The translations under genes were made by a program, and so were the position numbers. From Deltaproteobacteria bacterium (GTDB lineage: Bacteria > Myxococcota_A > Polyangia > Polyangiales > Houyiibacteriaceae), in assembly GCA_034670305.1 (NCBI GenBank), contig JAXMNT010000051.1:1-53793 (forward strand): 53,793 nucleotides of DNA, given 5' to 3'. Shown here piece by piece: positions 24,263 to 33,302 of the stretch. Each line of letters begins with the position of its first letter. Position 1 is the stretch's first letter. The notes beneath the pieces are model-generated. The model ran no database searches and had not been told where the DNA came from. It saw only the letters and a list, made by a program, of their open reading frames with translations.

Positions 24263-26356
24263 ATGCGTCGACTTGCCCTGTCTTGTGTTCTCTCGTTCTC
24301 CTGGGTGCTGACCGGCTGCGGCGGCGACGACACCGGCACCTGCGCGACCGCAGCCGACTGTCCCGCGGGTCAGGTCTGTCTGGACGGTCTCTGCATCTCC
24401 CGACCCGGCGTCGATGGCGGTGGACGGGATGCGCCGGGCGCCGATGCCCCCGGCGTGGACTCCGGCCCGCCGACCATGATCGAGTCGATCCGAATCGACC
24501 CCGAAGACGCGGTGTTGACGGCCACCTTGGGCGAGCGTCCGAGCCAGGACTTCGAGGTCCTCGGGACCTTCAGCGACGGAGTCGAACGCACGGTGAGCGG
24601 CGCCCGGTTCTCACTCGACGCGGTCACCATCGGAGACATCGACGAGGCGAGCGGCATGTTCACCGCGAACGGCGTCGCCGGCGGTGCGACCGGCGTCAAC
24701 GTCGCGGTGGATGGACCGGCGGGTGAGCTCACAGCGGCCGGCACCGTGTCCGTGAACTACCGGAGCGAGATCCTCGGCGAAGGGGTGCCCGCCGATGCAC
24801 CAGCACTCTTCGCCACGCCGATCGACGACGCCGCCCGCGCTGCGGGTCTGGTGTACCCGCTCGATGGTGCGGTGATGCCCCAGAACGTCTACCCAGCCGA
24901 CACGCAGTGGGTCACCGGTGTCGAAGGGGATCTCTTTCGAGTGCGCATGATCAAGCCGCACTTCGAACTGACTGCGTACGTGCTGCACTCGGGCGCCGGG
25001 TTCGGGAACCACTGGCTGACCGACGCCGACGCATGGCGCGCGCTCGCACAGACGGATCCGGACGCCGCCGCCCAGGTGAGCGTCGATCGGTGGGAAGCCA
25101 TCAGCCGCGAAGCCATCTCTGGCACCGCCGTGAACCTGACGTTCGCGCGCGCGGCGTTGACGGGGAGCGTCTACTACTGGGACATCGCGGCCGGCCGGAT
25201 CGTGCGCATCGACGACGGGACCGCGACGCCGGACGAGTTCATGCCCAACCCGCCGCCCGCGCCGCGCGATGCGAACCGCTGCGTGGGTTGCCACGCGGTC
25301 TCGAACAGCGGTCGCTACATGGCGGGCCGACTCGGCGGCGGCAACAACGGCGGCGCGGTGTTCGACCTGACCACGGACCTCACCGGGGACCCGCCTCCGG
25401 TCGAGTTCCCCGTGAGCACCGCCAGCACCTACTGGTGGTTCTCGTCCTGGAGCCCGGACGACACCCGCCTCGTCATCACGCAGAACGAAGGACCGAGCAG
25501 CGGCATGGCGTTCATGGACCCGTTCACCGGTGCGGTGATGCCCACCACCGGAAGCCCCACCCCGACCGGCGTGAGCCACCCCGCGTGGGCGCCCGATGGG
25601 ACCCAGATCGCCTACGCCTGCAACGTCAACGCCTGGGGCGGCGCGTTCACCGCCGCCAACCTCTGCACGCTCGACATGACGGGTGTGGACGCAGTCGGAC
25701 CGAACCGCACGGTGCACCTCGGGGCGGACTTGGCCGGCTCGACCCCCGCCGGCGCGGCGGACTCGTATCCGACCTGGACGCCGGACTCCGCGCGCATCGC
25801 GTTCTCGCACGGCAGTGGCACCCGGAGCGAAGACCAACAGGCCGCGCTCTACATGATGAACCGAGACGGCACGAACGTGGTTCGCCTCGACGCTGCCAAT
25901 GGCGGCGTGACGACCAACTTCCAACCCCGGTTCTCGCCCTTCAGTCAGGGCGGCTATTTCTGGGTCTCGTTCCTCTCCCGCCGCGACTACGGCAACGCCG
26001 AAGTCGGCACCCGAGGAGACGCCTTCCAGCAGATCTGGGTCGCTGCGATCCGCACCGACGCCGCCGCCGGCACCGACCCAAGCGCCGTGCCGTACTGGCT
26101 CCCAGGCCAACGCACGACCTCGCGGAACATCAGCGCCTACTGGGCGCCACGTCCCTGTCGCGAAGACGGTGAGGGATGCGCGGTGGGCAGCGAGTGTTGC
26201 GGCGGCGATTGCCGCCCCGACGCCGAAGGCGCGCTCGTCTGCTCCCCCCCTCCGCCCGACCGCTGCCGCAACGACGGGGAGACCTGCTCCACGTCCGCCG
26301 ACTGCTGCGACGACCTCGAGTGCTTCGGCCGCGTATGCATCCGCCCGCCCGGCTGA
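24263..26356 (+). CDS. TolB-like (PD40) beta-propeller lipoprotein with an Ig-like domain, a CxxCH motif and Cys-rich ends
   Basis: Lipobox LTGC; blades [31 protein letters not shown] and PRFSP; CVGCH; C-terminal C-C-CC-C-C modules. Confidence 0.8.
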
Positions 26357-26460
26357 CCTCGCAGCAGACTCTGCGAGACCAACTCGCCGCGCTGGGCGTA
26401 CGAGAAGGCGACACCCTGATGCTCCACGTCTCCATGCGCCGGCTCGGGCCGATTGTCGCT
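26353..26460 (+). pseudogene. 5' stub of an AAC(3)/YokD-family acetyltransferase
   Basis: [34 protein letters not shown] matches the family N-terminus (L..LGV..GD.L.VH.S...LG). It breaks off at the repeat array. Confidence 0.65.
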
Positions 26461-26468
26461 TCGTCATG

Positions 26469-26670
26469 GGCATCGGCGTCGGCTTCGGGATCGGTTTCGG
26501 CTTCGGCGTCGGCTTCGGCTTCGGCGTCGGCGTCGGCGTCGGCTTCGGCTTCGGCTTCGGCGTCGGCTTCGGCTTCGGCTTCGGCTTCGGCTTCGGCGTC
26601 GGCTTCGGCTTCGGCTTCGGCTTCGGCATCGGCATCGGCTTCGGCTTCGGCTTCGGCGTCGGCGTCGGCG
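26469..26670. repeat. Hexamer-period array (TCGGCT/TCGGCG)n
   Basis: About 33 visible tandem units. Confidence 0.95.
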
Positions 26671-26723
26671 CCGCCACACCCTCCACCCCCAAGGTTGCGT
26701 GTGGATTTCTCCGAGGTCGGGGT

Positions 26724-27932
26724 ATGCTGCCCCCCGTGAACCGGACTTCCTCTTTCACACTCCTGCTTCTGCTCGCGTTCGGAACACCGGTCGCCGCGCA
26801 GCCGACCCCGCCCACGGAAGGCACCGAGCCGACCGAAACCACGCCAGAGGGTGCGGACACGGAGGGCGCGGAGACGGCGGGCGCGGAAACCACCGGCGCA
26901 GAGGGTGCTGCCCCTGAAGCTACCGAGGGCGCCACGGACACCGAGGGGGCCGAGGGCGCCGAAGGGGCCGAGGCCACCGAGCCGGCGTCCGAAGCCGGCC
27001 CGCTCATCATCGTCGTCGACGCCGCGCCCTACGGGGTCGCGCCCGTGGTCGGCCAGCACGTCACCGCACGCATGCGGCTGACGGCCCAAGAGATGGGGTA
27101 CAGCGTGCTCGGTGCGGCCCAGACCGTCGCCACCGCACAACGGCTCCAGATGCCGTACCCGCCCGCCCCGTCCGATCTCTGGCGCGTGACGTACGCCGCC
27201 CAGGCGCGCCGCGGAGCATTTGCCCGAGTGTGGGCCCACGACGGCCAGTACGTGGTCGAGATCAGCGTGGCGAGCCGCGACGGTCGCGGCCCCTTCTTCT
27301 CGCGCGGCACCGCGAGCGCGGAACAGCTCCACGAAGTGGTGGCGCGGCTGACCCGCGAAGCGATCCCGCCGCCCAGCGCATGGGACGAAGAGGCCGCCGC
27401 GCAGCAGCAGACCGCTCAGGAACAAGCCGCGGCCCAAGCCCAAGCGCAACAGGCTGCGCGCACGCCGCAGCCCGTGGTGCGTCGACCGCGGGTCGACCGG
27501 CGGCCCACCCGCCGTTTCGATCTGGCGCTCCACCTGGAAGGCGCCATCGGCACCTCGAGCGACAGCTTCTTCAACCTCTTGCTCGGCGTCCGGCTCGGGT
27601 TGCGGGTCACCAACACCTTCCACCTCGGCTTGGTGTTCAACTACGGCAACCTTCGGGGACGGGACGGGCGCGCCAACAACATCCTGCCGATGCTCCAGGC
27701 CGAGAACCGCATCCGCATCAGCTCACGCAGCGACATCACCGTCCCGATCCGGTTCTCGATCGGCTACCTGCCGTTCAATGGACCGGTCGTCCGACTCGCG
27801 GCCGGCCTGAACATCCCGCTCAGCAAGAAGCTTGAGCTCGCCTTCGACATCCTGACCCCGACCTTCTGGGTGCTGCCCGACCGCACCGCCGTCAGCCTGA
27901 ACCTGGGCGCCGACCTCATCGTCCGGCTCTAA
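26724..27932 (+). CDS. Exported protein with a C-terminal outer-membrane beta-barrel-like domain
   Basis: Signal peptide ending VAA-Q, T/E/G/A-rich and Q/A-rich linkers, and alternating amphipathic strands ending [11 protein letters not shown]. Start ATG 26724 or GTG 26736. Confidence 0.7.
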
Positions 27933-27935
27933 GCC

Positions 27936-28106
27936 GCGAAGCGGAAGCGGTCGCGGAAGCGGTCGCGGAAGCGGACACGGTCGCGGAAGCGGTCGCGGAA
28001 GCGGTCGCGGAAGCGGTCGCGGAAGCGGTCGCGGAAGCGGTCGCGGAAGCGGTCGCGGAAGCGCGGAAACGCGGAAACGCGGAAACGGAAGCGGTCGCGG
28101 AAGCGG
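27936..28106. repeat. Tandem array (GCGGAAGCGGTC)n
   Basis: 12-mer built from GCGGAA/GCGGTC hexamers, in a convergent gap. Confidence 0.95.
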
Positions 28107-28163
28107 CCCTCTCACACTCGCACGGCCAACCCTCTCCGAAGACCCGGACGGAGCCTGCCCGCG

Positions 28164-29267
28164 TTACCGGAAGAAGAAATACAGGACGACCGCGACGCAG
28201 ATCACCAGCATCGCCCATTGCTTCTGGGTCGGTCCTCGAGGCGCGGGCGCGGTCGCGCCGGCGGGCGCGGTGCCGGTGAGTTTTCGGTAGGCCTCCGAGA
28301 CCCGCTGAAAACGTCGGGTCGCTTCGAGGTCGCCGGCGTTGCGGTCCGGGTGCAGCCGCACCGCCATCGCGCGGTACGCGGCGTCGATCTGGGGACGCGT
28401 CGCACCTGGAAGCAGCCCGAGCGCCGCGTACGGGAGCCACTCGTCGTCTTCGCCCTCCACGACGATGCGGACGACCAAGTCTCCGCGATGGGCGGCGAGG
28501 TCGGGCGCGCGGTAGGGGTCGCCCCCCAGCTGGACCTGGGTGGGTCGCGCGAGGTGGGGCGCACCGAAACGCGGAAGCCCGAGTCCGGCGAGACGGATCT
28601 CGTGGCCGGTCTGGGTCCGCGGTGGCAGTTCCACCCGCCACGTGCCTTCCGGAAGCGGCACCCAGACGCTTCCCCCGTCGCGCGCTTGTTCGGCCGTGAT
28701 CTGGACCAGGGCCCGCAGGTCGTCCCCCTTCCGGACGAGATCTTCGTGAGGCAAGAGTTCGACCAAGAGGTGCAGGTCGCCGGGTCCCTCGCCGTCGGCG
28801 AGATCGTCGCCCTTGCCACGCAAACGAAGCGTCTGGCCTTCGGCGACGCCGGACGGGATCTTCACCGTCAGCGATTCCCGCCGCCGCTCGCCGCCCGTGC
28901 CACCGCACGCCGCACAGCCGGTCTCGAACTGCTCCCCTCGACCGCCACAGGTTTGGCAGGTGGTGGTCGTGGTGAAGAACCCTTGGGTCTTGCTGTGTTG
29001 ACCGCTGCCACCGCAGGCGTTGCACGCCAGTGCGCTCTCGGACGCAGGCGCGCCCCGCCCCAGGCAGTCGGCACATGCAAGGAACCGCTCGATCTCGAGC
29101 GCTCGATCGACACCTTCGAGATCCCGCAGCGAAACCCTCAGCGCCATCGTGCGGTCGCGCGTCCTCGTCGCGAACTTGGCGGCGCCGCCAAAGAGGTCAC
29201 CCAGAAGATCCGACTGGAACATCTCCTGGAAGTCTCGAAAGACGTCCGATGGTTCTTGGTCCGCCAC
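28164..29267 (-). CDS. Rearranged DnaJ-like co-chaperone (Zn finger, CTD, J-domain, TM tail)
   Basis: Four CxxCxGxG motifs; VKIPSGV..GQTLRLRGKG..PGDL; a J-domain with HPD near the C-terminus; hydrophobic tail. Start GTG 29267. Confidence 0.85.
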   Translation of the reverse strand: MADQEPSDVFRDFQEMFQSDLLGDLFGGAAKFATRTRDRTMALRVSLRDLEGVDRALEIERFLACADCLGRGAPASESALACNACGGSGQHSKTQGFFTTTTTCQTCGGRGEQFETGCAACGGTGGERRRESLTVKIPSGVAEGQTLRLRGKGDDLADGEGPGDLHLLVELLPHEDLVRKGDDLRALVQITAEQARDGGSVWVPLPEGTWRVELPPRTQTGHEIRLAGLGLPRFGAPHLARPTQVQLGGDPYRAPDLAAHRGDLVVRIVVEGEDDEWLPYAALGLLPGATRPQIDAAYRAMAVRLHPDRNAGDLEATRRFQRVSEAYRKLTGTAPAGATAPAPRGPTQKQWAMLVICVAVVLYFFFR

Positions 29268-29323
29268 AGGTGCGAGTGTAGCCGCGAATGAAGAACCGTC
29301 GGCTCCTCCACGACCGGTTCGGA

Positions 29324-30445
29324 CTACTCGGTCGGGTCCGGCTTCTTCTTCTTGCGCTTCGGTTTGCGAACGCCGGCGATGCCGACTTTCAACCGCTGCA
29401 TGACCGCTTCGTTCTGGCGCTCTTTGTACGCTGCGTGGCTCGCGTCGCCGACCTCGTTCGAACGGTCGGTCCCGGTGTCGAGCACCTGGAACTCGGTCTG
29501 CACGAAGATCACTCGGCCGAGCGCCCAAGCGGCTGGTGGCGCTTCGGTCAACATGGACTCAGGCATCCGAATGGGCATGTCCGCCACGAAATGAACGACT
29601 CGGTACGCTTCGGAGCTGAAGACGTTGTCGACGAGGCCGCCCTCTTCTTCGCCGAAATCCAGGGGAAGCTGCAGTCCCGGCACCAGCGTCTGAAGATGCG
29701 GGTCCGTCTCGCAGAGCTGCCGGAACCGCACGAGCGTGTTCGTCGACTCCTTCGGGATGACGTAGTTGAACGGGAACACTTCGCGCATCAGGAAGTTCAA
29801 CATCGGCAACACGTCGTCGGTCGCGCGGGTCACGATGCGGAACCGCAACTTGTCGTAGATCTGCGCGGCGGTGACTTCCTGCTTCGAGAGCAGCTTCGTG
29901 TAGAGCGAGTCCTTGTTCTTGCGACCGCCAATGAACTCGACGATCGGGAACCCGGCCGCAAGTGCGTCTCCGACGACCCGGTAGACCTTCTGCTCGACCA
30001 GGTGGAACACCTCTTCGTCGGACGTCGGGAGCATGAAAAGCAGCTCGCGCGCTTCGAGGTGATGAATGATGTGCATCACCTTCAAGATCGTGCAGGCGCA
30101 CAGTTGCCGGTGTCCCTTGTCGGACGCGAGCTCGAGCAACCCGCCCACATTCAACTCAGCCACGGGCCGGGGGATCGGGAAGTCGAACTTCCGCCGCAAG
30201 AAACTCATCGCAGAGTTCTTGATCGCTTCGGTGCGCGCGCGATCGACCGGATCGTTGAGATCGATCTCCTGCGCCTTGAGGAAGCGGTCGACCTCGGCGC
30301 GGCCGGTGAAGTTGAGCCGGTGCCAGTCGATGACCGAACCGCCCTGGAGCAGGAGCCGGATCGCCTCGAGCTCGGCGACGCTCAGCCGTTCGAGCGCACG
30401 AAACGCTTCGGGGCGCTCCCGTGTGGATGATTCCGCGGTCGACAC
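29324..30445 (-). CDS. TIGR04552-like myxobacterial protein (RelA/SpoT-like nucleotidyltransferase fold)
   Basis: LEAIRLLLQGGSVIDWHRLNF, GRKNKDSLYTKLL, IYDKLRFRIVT, FPFNYVIP and TEFQV. Confidence 0.75.
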   Translation of the reverse strand: MSTAESSTRERPEAFRALERLSVAELEAIRLLLQGGSVIDWHRLNFTGRAEVDRFLKAQEIDLNDPVDRARTEAIKNSAMSFLRRKFDFPIPRPVAELNVGGLLELASDKGHRQLCACTILKVMHIIHHLEARELLFMLPTSDEEVFHLVEQKVYRVVGDALAAGFPIVEFIGGRKNKDSLYTKLLSKQEVTAAQIYDKLRFRIVTRATDDVLPMLNFLMREVFPFNYVIPKESTNTLVRFRQLCETDPHLQTLVPGLQLPLDFGEEEGGLVDNVFSSEAYRVVHFVADMPIRMPESMLTEAPPAAWALGRVIFVQTEFQVLDTGTDRSNEVGDASHAAYKERQNEAVMQRLKVGIAGVRKPKRKKKKPDPTE

Positions 30446-30950: not shown

Positions 30951-33302
30951 ATGACCGATTCGCTGTTTCCTACCGATCCCACGCCCACGCTTCCCATCCT
31001 CCCGTTGCGGAACTCGGTGTTGTTCCCGGCCGCTGTGGTGCCGGTCAACGTGGGTCGACCTCGTTCGGTCCGCCTCATCGAAGACGTGGTGGGCCAAGGC
31101 GCCGAGCGTCCGCTCATCGGTGTCGTCGGCCAGCGCAAACCGGAGACCGAAGACCCCTCGTTCGAGGAGATCCACTGGGTGGGGACCGTCGCGCGGATCC
31201 TCAAGGTCATCCGGCTCAACTCGGGCAACTACAGCGTCGTTCTGCAGGGTGTCTCGCGCATGCAGATCTTAGAAGCCGCCGGCCGCCACCCATGCATGCA
31301 AGCGAAGGTCGAACGCATCCGCGAGCTGCCGCAGACCGATGTCGAGATCGAAGCGCTGGCGGCCCATCTGCGCGAAGCGGCGCGCCGGCTCTCCACGATG
31401 CTTCCGAATCAGCCGCGCGACGCGAGCACCATCCTCGACAACGTGCAGGAAGCGGGCGCGCTCGCCGACCTGGTTGCGTCGAACCTCCCGATCGGAAACG
31501 ACGCCAAGCAGAGCGTGTTGGAGACGCTCGATGTGCGCGAGCGGATCCGCCGCGTGCTCGATCTCGTGACTCGCCAGTCCGAGGTCTACCGCGTCAAGAA
31601 GGAGATCTCGACGATGGTCGAGGAGGAGATGTCGCGTTCTCAGCGCGAGTACCTTCTTCGGCAACAGCTCAAGGCGATCAAACGCGAGCTCGGCGAGCCG
31701 GAAGACGACGAAGACGACATCGAAGCGCTGCGCGAGAAGGTTGCGAGCACCGACATGTCGTCCGACGCCGAACGCGCGGCACGCAAGCAGATCAGCCGGA
31801 TGCGCACGATGAACTCGGCGAGCAGCGAGTACCACGTGTGCCGCCAGTACGTGGAATGGCTCACCGACATTCCCTGGGCGAAGGGCACCGCGGACCGACT
31901 CGACGTGACCGAAGCGCGGCGGGTGCTCGACGAAGATCACCACGGACTCGACAAACCGAAGCGTCGGATCTGCGAGTACATCGCCGTGCGTCGTCTGCGC
32001 CACGACGTGCGCGGTCCCATCTTGTGTTTCGTCGGTCCGCCCGGCGTCGGCAAGACCTCGCTCGCGCGGAGCATTGCCCGGGCGACGGCGCGGCAGTTCG
32101 TGCGGGTCTCGCTGGGCGGCGTGTCGGACGAAGCCGAGATCCGTGGACACCGGCGGACCTACGTCGGCGCGTTCCCGGGACGCATCGTCACCGCGCTCAA
32201 ACAAGCGCAGAGCAAGAACCCGGTGATGCTGCTCGACGAGGTCGACAAGCTCGGTTCGGACGGTCGCGGCGATCCTTCGAGCGCGCTGCTCGAAGTGCTC
32301 GACCCCGAGCAGAACAACACGTTCACCGATCACTACATCGAAGTACCCGTCGACCTGAGCTCGGTGATGTTCATCGCCACGGCCAACCGCATGGACACGA
32401 TCCCGACGCCGCTCCTCGACCGGATGGAAGTCATTCAGTTGCCCGGCTACACGCGGGTGGAGAAGTGCTCGATCGCCAAGCAGTTCCTGGTGCCGCGCCA
32501 GCTGGCCGACCACGGCATCACGCCCGACCGGCTCGAGTTCACCGACGCCGGCATCGAGTGCATCGTCGACGAGTACACCCGAGAGGCCGGCGTTCGACAC
32601 CTCGAGCAGCGGGTGGCGGCCATCTGCCGCTCGCTCGCAGTGCGGCTGGCGAACGGCGAAGACGCCTTCGAGATGGCGACGCCAGGGTTCGTGGAAGACG
32701 CACTCGGACCGGCAACCCACAAACGCGAAGCCCTCGAACGCGCCTCGCAGTCCGGGCTGAGCGCAGGGCTCGCGTGGACCCCTTCGGGTGGCGTCGTGCT
32801 CTACGTCGAGGCGCGCCGCATGACCGGCAGCGGCAAGATCCACCTGACCGGCCAGATGGGCGACGTGATGAAAGAATCGGTCGCGGCCGCGTTCACGTAC
32901 ATTCGTGCGCGCGCTGGCGAGCTCGGTCTGCCCGAAGACTTCCTGAGCAAGATCGACGTCCACGTGCACTTGCCCGCCGGGAGTGTGCCGAAGGACGGCC
33001 CCTCCGCGGGCATCACGATCTTCACAGCGCTTGCTTCGGTACTGACGCGGCTGAAAGTCCGGCACGACGTGGCGATGACCGGTGAGATGACGTTGCGGGG
33101 CAACGTGCTTCCGGTTGGCGGCATCAAGGAGAAGATCCTCGCCGCCCACCGCGCTGGCATCAAACACGTGATCCTCCCGAAACGAAACGCCCCGGATCTC
33201 GAGGACGTGCCGAAGGAGATCCGCGAAGGGCTCGAGTTCCACCTCGTCGGTCGGGTCTCGGACGTGCTTCCGCTGGCGCTCGAGACCGGCTCGATCTCGT
33301 AG
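30951..33302 (+). CDS. lon: Endopeptidase La (Lon protease)
   Basis: LPILPLRN N-domain, [33 protein letters not shown] (Ser) and GGIKEK (Lys). Confidence 0.97.

Follow-up and report, generated by a model that had tools for sequence, protein, structure and literature searches.

As far as we know, the textbook scheme of J-proteins holds that those with the client-binding body of DnaJ (classes A and B) always have the J-domain first. Attachment of J-proteins to membranes is known from several other arrangements. DjlB and DjlC have an N-terminal J-domain and are not known to carry the zinc finger or the DnaJ_C domains; DjlA has its J-domain at the C-terminal end, behind a central DjlA-type domain, is held by an N-terminal transmembrane anchor and is likewise not known to have the zinc finger or the client-binding domains CTDI and CTDII. 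In the farnesylated class A proteins of eukaryotes (Ydj1, DNAJA1/2), a class A body is attached to the membrane via its C-terminus, i.e., by a lipid on a CaaX box, and the N-terminal J-domain and the dimerisation domain are kept. Plant proteins of the BSD2/ORANGE type are not known to have the CTDI/CTDII beta-sandwiches. In the available parts of the published accounts, class A and class B proteins are described as carrying an N-terminal J-domain (PMC10410713, PMC9141911), E. coli DjlB and DjlC as tail-anchored J-proteins at the inner membrane with HscC as their partner (PMC8215388, PMC6794478) that are thought to bring Hsp70 to membrane clients (PMC8215388), and DjlA as a membrane-anchored J-protein whose partner is DnaK (PMC8215388). 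The gene discussed here lies at 28164..29267 on the reverse strand of a window of 53,793 nucleotides, i.e., the whole stretch that was analysed (contig JAXMNT010000051.1 of assembly GCA_034670305.1, a deltaproteobacterium of the order Polyangiales). It encodes a DnaJ-like protein in which the J-domain comes after the client-binding domains and is followed by a hydrophobic tail. We consider it probable, at roughly 0.6, that this permuted protein is a membrane-tethered Hsp70 co-chaperone, encoded by a genuine paralog of class A DnaJ that selection has kept.

From the N- to the C-terminus, the protein consists of a DIF-like remnant, CTDI with four CxxCxGxG repeats, CTDII, a J-domain with its HPD motif, and the hydrophobic tail. 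The remnant of the glycine/phenylalanine-rich (G/F) region, read from the translation (residues 8-28, DVFRDFQEMFQSDLLGDLFGG; 29184..29246, on the reverse strand like all features of the gene), resembles the stretch that precedes CTDI in canonical DnaJ and aligns with the N-terminal F..F..IFGDLFG motif of the family described below. The Pfam profile DnaJ_C (PF01556) matches CTDI and most of CTDII at 28566..29141 (residues 43-234; 91.0 bits against a cut-off of 26.6, E = 1e-25, profile positions 5-135 of 152). The zinc-finger-like region is found at 28893..29075 (residues 65-125), where DnaJ_CXXCXGXG (PF00684) is covered over its whole length (positions 1-65 of 65, 36.5 bits against 32.7, E = 6e-9). 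Its repeats read CADCLGRG, CNACGGSG, CQTCGGRG and CAACGGTG, and all eight cysteines are intact. The DnaJ_C alignment ends where a family-specific loop insert of CTDII begins (28488..28571, residues 233-260, ...GAPHLARPTQVQLGGDPYRAPDLAAH), ahead of RGDLVV. The J-domain follows at 28275..28433 (residues 279-331); PF00226 matches it with positions 2-54 of 63 at 49.1 bits against a cut-off of 27.8, and at 53.1 bits in a profile search of the genome contigs. The HPD motif occupies 28344-28352 (residues 306-308) within an intact HPDRN. About 10 residues separate the J-domain from CTDII and about 20 separate it from the tail; the linker behind it is rich in Ala, Pro and Thr, contains no Phe and is not Gly/Phe-rich.

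Most of this layout had been read in a first-pass annotation of the same DNA. The DIF-like N-terminus and the four CxxCxGxG repeats that it named are both present in the translation, its two substrate-binding subdomains are borne out by the PF01556 score and by the modelled strands and fold matches given below, and the J-domain that it placed after all other domains is also placed last when the order is checked with Pfam. The possibility it raised, that the C-terminal segment might fail the J-domain hidden Markov model (HMM), can be set aside given the score of 49.1 bits against 27.8.

The reading frame of 367 amino acids (P0001) starts with a GTG at 29267 and ends with a stop codon at 28164-28166. 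This GTG is the first start codon past the stop of the upstream gene (TAG, 29324-29326), and the intergenic gap amounts to 56 nt, as the first-pass annotation had stated. The gene call on record begins at the ATG of residue 16 (352 amino acids, P0002) and truncates the conserved N-terminal F..F..F motif (29223-29267). The N-termini of relatives (M-x-D-P-like, with the F..F..IFGDLFG motif) line up with the protein read from the GTG, which is therefore to be preferred as the start codon. The codon-position GC of the gene (0.74/0.53/0.80) shows the coding-frame pattern of the window. When the Pfam domains were scored on the longest possible open reading frame (ORF; 454 amino acids from a TTG at 29528, inside the upstream gene), no J-domain match appeared at the N-terminus even of this extended ORF, which agrees with the earlier claim that there is no N-terminal J-domain.

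The AlphaFold2 model, which was built on the 26-row alignment of the family, has a mean predicted local distance difference test score (pLDDT) of 89 and a predicted template modelling score (pTM) of 0.75, and it contains the strands of both beta-sandwich domains. Helices I-III of the J-domain are modelled at residues 277-282, 291-305 and 314-331 and a terminal helix at 348-366 with a pLDDT of about 95; the first 30 residues are poorly defined, with a low-confidence helix at 6-17. In a Foldseek comparison with the PDB, the model matched Streptococcus pneumoniae DnaJ (6jzb, 3.3e-20), DNAJA2 (7zhs, 6.1e-20), Ydj1 (1nlt, 2.8e-16) and further client-binding domains of class A and B Hsp40 proteins.

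Hydropathy and the modelled terminal helix together predict a C-terminal transmembrane tail anchor at 28170..28226 (residues 348-366, followed by R367 alone). The Kyte-Doolittle mean over 17 residues (KD17) reaches 2.33 at residues 350-366 of 367 and does not exceed 0.77 elsewhere in the protein. The terminal hydrophobic helix of the first-pass annotation is thus seen by both methods and recurs in relatives. At the N-terminus, no hydrophobic segment was found: KD17 does not rise above 0.52 within residues 1-40, and residues 1-30 have a net charge of -6. A hydrophobic helix with one terminal basic residue recalls what we take to be the general layout of MYXO-CTERM/PEP-CTERM-type signals, and in that case the protein could be exported, with the C-terminal stretch serving for its sorting or processing. 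Such a reading is hardly credible in view of the N-terminal charge and hydropathy just given, the latter being matched in the family (no second hydrophobic segment in the 24 members tested; KD17 at most 0.95 in their first 40 residues). Moreover, the NCBIfam scan at E <= 0.01 contained no C-terminal sorting-domain model, and J-domains and DnaJ zinc fingers work on cytoplasmic Hsp70.

An unusual domain order may also result from an error of assembly or gene calling, here one that would have joined a DnaJ fragment without a J-domain to a distinct gene for a J-domain. The window belongs to a metagenome-derived assembly, and a tandem repeat that breaks contigs lies just downstream of the gene (27941-28106). 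Nevertheless, in each of four sequencing runs a single Logan contig of 4028 bases covers 28034-29700, a span that takes in the CTDII-to-J junction and the intergenic gap, with 0 differences, indels or joints, and the contigs break only in the downstream repeat. The four runs belong to one study, labelled plastic metagenome, and may be the source of the assembly itself; no RNA data set was listed as containing the stretch. The same domain order recurs, however, in independent assemblies, namely, in P0003 (from a single-contig 9.07-Mb Polyangiales chromosome), P0004, P0122-P0127, P0130, P0144 and the fragment P0142, 11 sequences that are 33-43% identical to the window protein, and it was found in genome G163 as well. 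An artefact, which the first-pass annotation had named as a danger, is therefore so improbable as to be negligible.

In relation to known systems, the protein derives from class A DnaJ, although it belongs to class C by the formal scheme. Of six class-defining features, it possesses the zinc finger with four CxxCxGxG repeats within CTDI and the two client-binding beta-sandwich domains; the other four, i.e., an N-terminal J-domain, a G/F linker after the J-domain, a dimerisation domain and a score above the cut-off of the NCBIfam DnaJ equivalog (TIGR02349; 209.3 bits in two stretches against 377.2), are lacking. The term class-A-like, as used in the first-pass annotation, is nonetheless right, because in the tree the family to which the protein belongs stands as the sister clade of 10 class A DnaJ sequences of the canonical kind. 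It shares with canonical DnaJ the zinc finger in CTDI, the two beta-sandwiches, a DIF-like motif before CTDI and an HPD-bearing J-domain. Unlike canonical DnaJ, it has the J-domain after CTDII, lacks the Gly-rich part of the G/F region and the dimerisation helix, and has in addition a CTDII loop about 20 residues long and a hydrophobic tail.

By analogy, and not by sequence comparison, the permuted protein would be functionally closest to DjlB/DjlC, without being a member of that group. With DjlA it has only the C-terminal position of the J-domain in common; the window protein is without an N-terminal hydrophobic segment, and no DjlA model was among the NCBIfam matches at E <= 0.01. Ydj1 and DNAJA2 resemble it in fold (1nlt and 7zhs, respectively), and its predicted attachment to the membrane by the C-terminus would be a further likeness to these eukaryotic class A proteins, to whose group it does not belong either. 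The J-less relatives of the permuted protein, 13 in number, may be compared with the plant DnaJE class (BSD2, ORANGE), whose members have a DnaJ-type zinc finger without a J-domain and are in some cases membrane-bound (ORANGE is given as DnaJE1 in the available part of PMC12063368). Unlike the plant DnaJE proteins, the family keeps the entire DnaJ_C body. A further lead comes from one row of Table 1 in PMC9141911, in which Leishmania infantum J66, a type IV HSP40, is listed with a zinc finger (52-139) ahead of a J-like domain (185-275); the accessible text of the same paper describes J66 as paralogous to a type I protein (PMC9141911). J66 is eukaryotic and lacks the HPD motif, and that row lists no tail anchor. 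No published account of a tail-anchored architecture with DnaJ_C ahead of the J-domain was found in the literature searched, which excluded the survey of J-protein architectures in prokaryotes by Barriot et al. 2020 that is cited in PMC8215388. The question posed by the first-pass annotation, whether the architecture is an already characterised family, was thus answered in the negative within that literature. The protein is a rare architectural variant of a well-known chaperone family, with informative sister forms and a predicted function.

The window protein is not unique. It is one of a small family whose members often lack the J-domain, a fact that has to be weighed in judging how essential this domain is. 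A profile of three sequences was used to search 1.84 billion representative proteins; family members match it in one stretch, whereas canonical DnaJ proteins match it in two or three stretches with the J-domain first. When the window protein, P0003 and one ORF from locus L013 are added to the sequences found in this way, a 26-sequence alignment (A2) results. All 26 have the DIF-like N-terminus, the zinc finger, the CTDs and the CTDII insert of about 20 residues (...P.P....PYR.....RGDLVV), which is absent from the canonical DnaJ sequences compared. Four of the eight zinc-finger cysteines are invariant, and the other four are at least 90% conserved. With the exception of P0189, the sequences (25 of the 26) have a hydrophobic tail that reaches a KD17 of 1.77 or more and leaves 0-7 residues to the C-terminus; in four canonical DnaJ controls, the tail KD17 is at most 1.14. 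According to Pfam, a C-terminal J-domain is present in 12 of the 26 (P0130 at only 23.8 bits and without its HPD; in P0004 the motif reads HLD), 13 have no J-domain, with the zinc finger, both CTDs and the insert kept and a tail in 12, and one (P0169) combines an N-terminal J-domain with the insert and the tail. Identity falls to about 27-40% across the members, and in all pairs for which DNA is available, the proteins are at most 53% identical. In source databases, the relatives bear generic names ("DnaJ C-terminal domain-containing protein", "DnaJ-class molecular chaperone"), and three of the members give weak matches to the Pfam profile BSD2_CRD. The family search also returned P0131 (605 amino acids), which has three tandem DnaJ_C modules with reduced zinc fingers and neither a J-domain nor a tail, and the first of these modules has a loop resembling the CTDII insert of the family.

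Within the 12 C-terminal J-domains, L283, A297 and R299 are invariant and G284, Y298, H306, D308 and F320 are at least 90% conserved; the HPD motif is kept in 10. Since the YR pair, the HPD motif and the Phe of helix III are strongly conserved at an overall identity of about 40%, it is reasonable to assume that the J-domain is in use where it is present. A tree of the shared body places the family in one clade (support 100/96, starred) apart from the 10 canonical rows, which include both canonical DnaJ proteins of the window's own genome. The probable ancestor of the family is a canonical DnaJ to which the CTDII insert and the tail were added, and the position of the J-domain would have changed later, within the family. 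In a tree of the J-domains themselves (columns of helices I-III), 11 C-terminal J-domains and the N-terminal one of P0169 are separated from 15 canonical ones (support 84/95, not starred), and the alternative, in which P0169 groups with the canonical set, is not rejected (p-AU 0.32). An earlier version of this tree that included linker columns had given 98/99; it was discounted because of long branches and non-homologous columns. A single family-specific J-domain lineage that was relocated and then repeatedly lost would be compatible with the J-domain tree, although this sequence of events is unproven. In the tails of J-less members, some stretches had looked J-like by eye. This resemblance found no statistical support: an HMM of the C-terminal J-domains gives E >= 0.2 for 13 of 13, with P0130 as the positive control at 5e-13. 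Degenerating C-terminal J-domains do occur: in P0130 and in the copy of genome G156 (L116), a deletion of four residues removes the HPD motif, and the flanking helices are kept.

If the protein is a membrane-tethered co-chaperone, its hydrophobic tail would anchor it in the inner membrane and the remainder would be cytoplasmic. CTDI, the zinc finger and CTDII would bind non-native clients as they do in DnaJ. The J-domain would have moved from the N-terminus to a place between CTDII and the tail anchor, i.e., the site of the dimerisation helix in canonical DnaJ, and from this membrane-proximal position might recruit Hsp70 (DnaK or a paralog) and trigger its ATPase via the HPD motif. In this way, Hsp70 could act chiefly where the membrane faces the cytoplasm, with membrane proteins or proteins awaiting secretion as examples of its clients. 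A possible, albeit rather unlikely, elaboration is that the permuted form inverts the hand-over of clients: with Hsp70 docked at the membrane and the client-binding domains projecting into the cytoplasm, the protein would serve as a dedicated shuttle, picking up clients in the cytosol and passing them on to an Hsp70 close to the membrane (perhaps a single specialised paralog), so that they can be inserted, secreted or degraded.

Several observations weigh against a tethered co-chaperone. The membrane anchor is predicted solely from hydropathy and a modelled helix. There is no C-terminal dimerisation domain: the DnaJ_C profile is matched no further than position 135 of 152, and CTDII is followed within about 10 residues by the J-domain. 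Helix IV of the J-domain is missing from both the Pfam match and the AlphaFold2 model. Helix II of the window protein contains 2 Lys/Arg residues; the mean is 2.3 for 11 C-terminal J-domains and 4.3 for 15 canonical ones. The HPD motif is lost in two of the 12 C-terminal-J sequences (P0004 and P0130) and in the G156 copy. J-bearing and J-less forms are interleaved within the clade, in which 13 of 26 sequences have no J-domain, and monophyly of the 12 C-terminal-J rows is rejected (82 log-likelihood units worse, p = 3e-6 in the AU (approximately unbiased) test), which implies that the C-terminal J-domain was lost or gained several times. No neighbour is conserved across loci, and no Hsp70 gene lies on the window's contig. 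Because the J-domain is often missing and its HPD sometimes lost, the core function of the family may not need Hsp70 at all. The protein could then be a tail-anchored holdase or zinc-finger chaperone that acts independently of Hsp70, with the C-terminal J-domain as an optional or fading accessory; the J-less half of the family, with its zinc finger, CTDs, insert and (in 12 of 13) tail intact, the interleaving on the tree, the two HPD losses and the less basic helix II all speak for it. On the other hand, conservation of the YR pair, the HPD motif and the helix III Phe at 90% or more, at an identity of 33-43%, would be unexpected for a neutral appendage, and the window copy itself has an intact HPDRN. 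On balance, we regard a holdase of this kind as unlikely.

A tethered co-chaperone with a displaced J-domain would be of interest in several respects. Models of client transfer and of autoinhibition rest on the order of J-domain, G/F region and CTDs, from which the permuted protein departs. The natural series of forms, in which the J-domain comes first, comes last or is absent, allows a direct test of how the position of the J-domain and tethering contribute to Hsp70 recruitment and client hand-over. Myxobacteria have unusually numerous paralogs of Hsp70 and of J-proteins, and for these bacteria the protein is a candidate membrane-localised targeting factor of Hsp70. In the window's genome, at least eight Hsp70-family genes and 11 J-domain matches were found, the latter including canonical class A genes on contigs C12 and C27 and a class B gene on C5. 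Since the genome has canonical DnaJ genes of its own, the permuted gene appears to be an extra, specialised copy. At three places in this genome (G000), a J-domain match and an Hsp70 gene are no more than about 2 kb apart (C64 2754/4393, C30 8497/8743 and C67 26146/24419), and these neighbours may be dedicated pairs.

Of 401 genomes that sample the window's order, 10 contain a family member (E <= 1e-56), with one copy per carrier genome. The carriers are unevenly spread over taxonomic families: two carriers among 88 genomes of the window's own family (its genome counted), seven among 32 of the family of G057 and one among 191 of a third. The G057 protein is labelled Sandaracinaceae by NCBI, and the carriers are mostly Sandaracinaceae; the hosts of the family are soil and marine myxobacteria. 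Where the loci were read, a C-terminal J-domain with HPD was seen in G000, G012, G057 and G163, a degenerate one without HPD in G156 and none in G192, G167, G186 and G224; the tenth carrier, G152, enters the counts only. Among 401 genomes sampled across the phylum, the only family members were those of G012 and G057, and three further matches at the threshold were canonical DnaJ. The family is thus confined to the window's order among the genomes sampled, and a search of 60 relatives' genomes agrees with this picture. A scan of genome contigs returned nine loci, of which L012 is permuted, L013 is J-less, L014 and L019 proved canonical on reading, and five others have canonical-level E-values. 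In a metagenome scan with alignment A1, the permuted order was seen in none of the 80 loci returned. In a search with the 26-member profile, canonical DnaJ predominated so strongly that P0002 and P0169 were the only family members among 8000 scored candidates, and a search restricted to residues 225-345 recovered nothing but the protein of the window itself; both depend on shared exact words and give no measure of family size. In the ESM Atlas, only generic DnaJ clusters were found, at 0.88, i.e., below the 0.9 level.

This patchy occurrence (two of 88 genomes in the window's own taxonomic family, 10 of 401 in the order), together with a neighbourhood that is not conserved and an equivalog score of 209 against a cut-off of 377, might be explained by a decaying or neutral dnaJ duplicate without a maintained function. 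We consider this very unlikely, since the frame is open in every copy examined, the eight zinc-binding cysteines and the HPD motif are intact, the codon-position GC is of the coding type, the AlphaFold2 model is confident and the family persists down to about 27-40% identity.

The gene upstream of the permuted one (29324..30445, reverse strand) encodes a TIGR04552 family protein (NCBIfam, 341.6 bits against a cut-off of 125), separated from it by the 56 nt mentioned above; it also has a weak, sub-threshold Pfam match to the RelA_SpoT nucleotidyltransferase (21.7 bits against 27). As the scan found no terminator-like site between the two genes, they are possibly co-transcribed. The scan as a whole gave 0 promoter-like sites and three terminator-like sites, with 2.5 expected. 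The lon protease gene (30951..33302, forward strand; Pfam Lon_C, LON_substr_bdg and AAA) is divergent from the TIGR04552 gene. The location near lon to which the first-pass annotation drew attention is therefore true of the window, but at none of the eight other loci compared is lon, or the TIGR04552 gene, a neighbour. When the window's neighbours were compared by tblastn with L012 and L013, the DnaJ-like gene alone was matched, and neither Pfam annotation of 29 neighbour proteins nor an all-against-all BLAST over nine loci revealed a shared partner, apart from local synteny between G167 and G192.

The downstream side of the gene is rich in repeats. The tandem array at 27941-28106, which starts 58 nt past the stop of the DnaJ-like gene, consists of 13.8 copies of the 12-mer GCGGAAGCGGTC. 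Summed word depth within it rises to as much as 474, compared with 12-36 in the flanks; the 12-mer unit is therefore repeated elsewhere. In G057, the orthologue is followed at a distance of about 130 nt by 38 copies of TTCCGT (L023 2721-2956); in G012, no tandem array is present in the scanned part of L012 (4000-9500). A second array in the window, at 26458-26669, comprises 35 copies of GCTTCG and lies within an ORF of 587 amino acids (26169-27932, forward strand), in which it is read as a long G-F/G-V repeat. This ORF has no Pfam or NCBIfam match, and its GC is coding-like, with 0.82 at third codon positions (GC3). It is overlapped by an antisense ORF of 799 amino acids, which reads the array as PKPKPK and has an atypical GC3 of 0.68.

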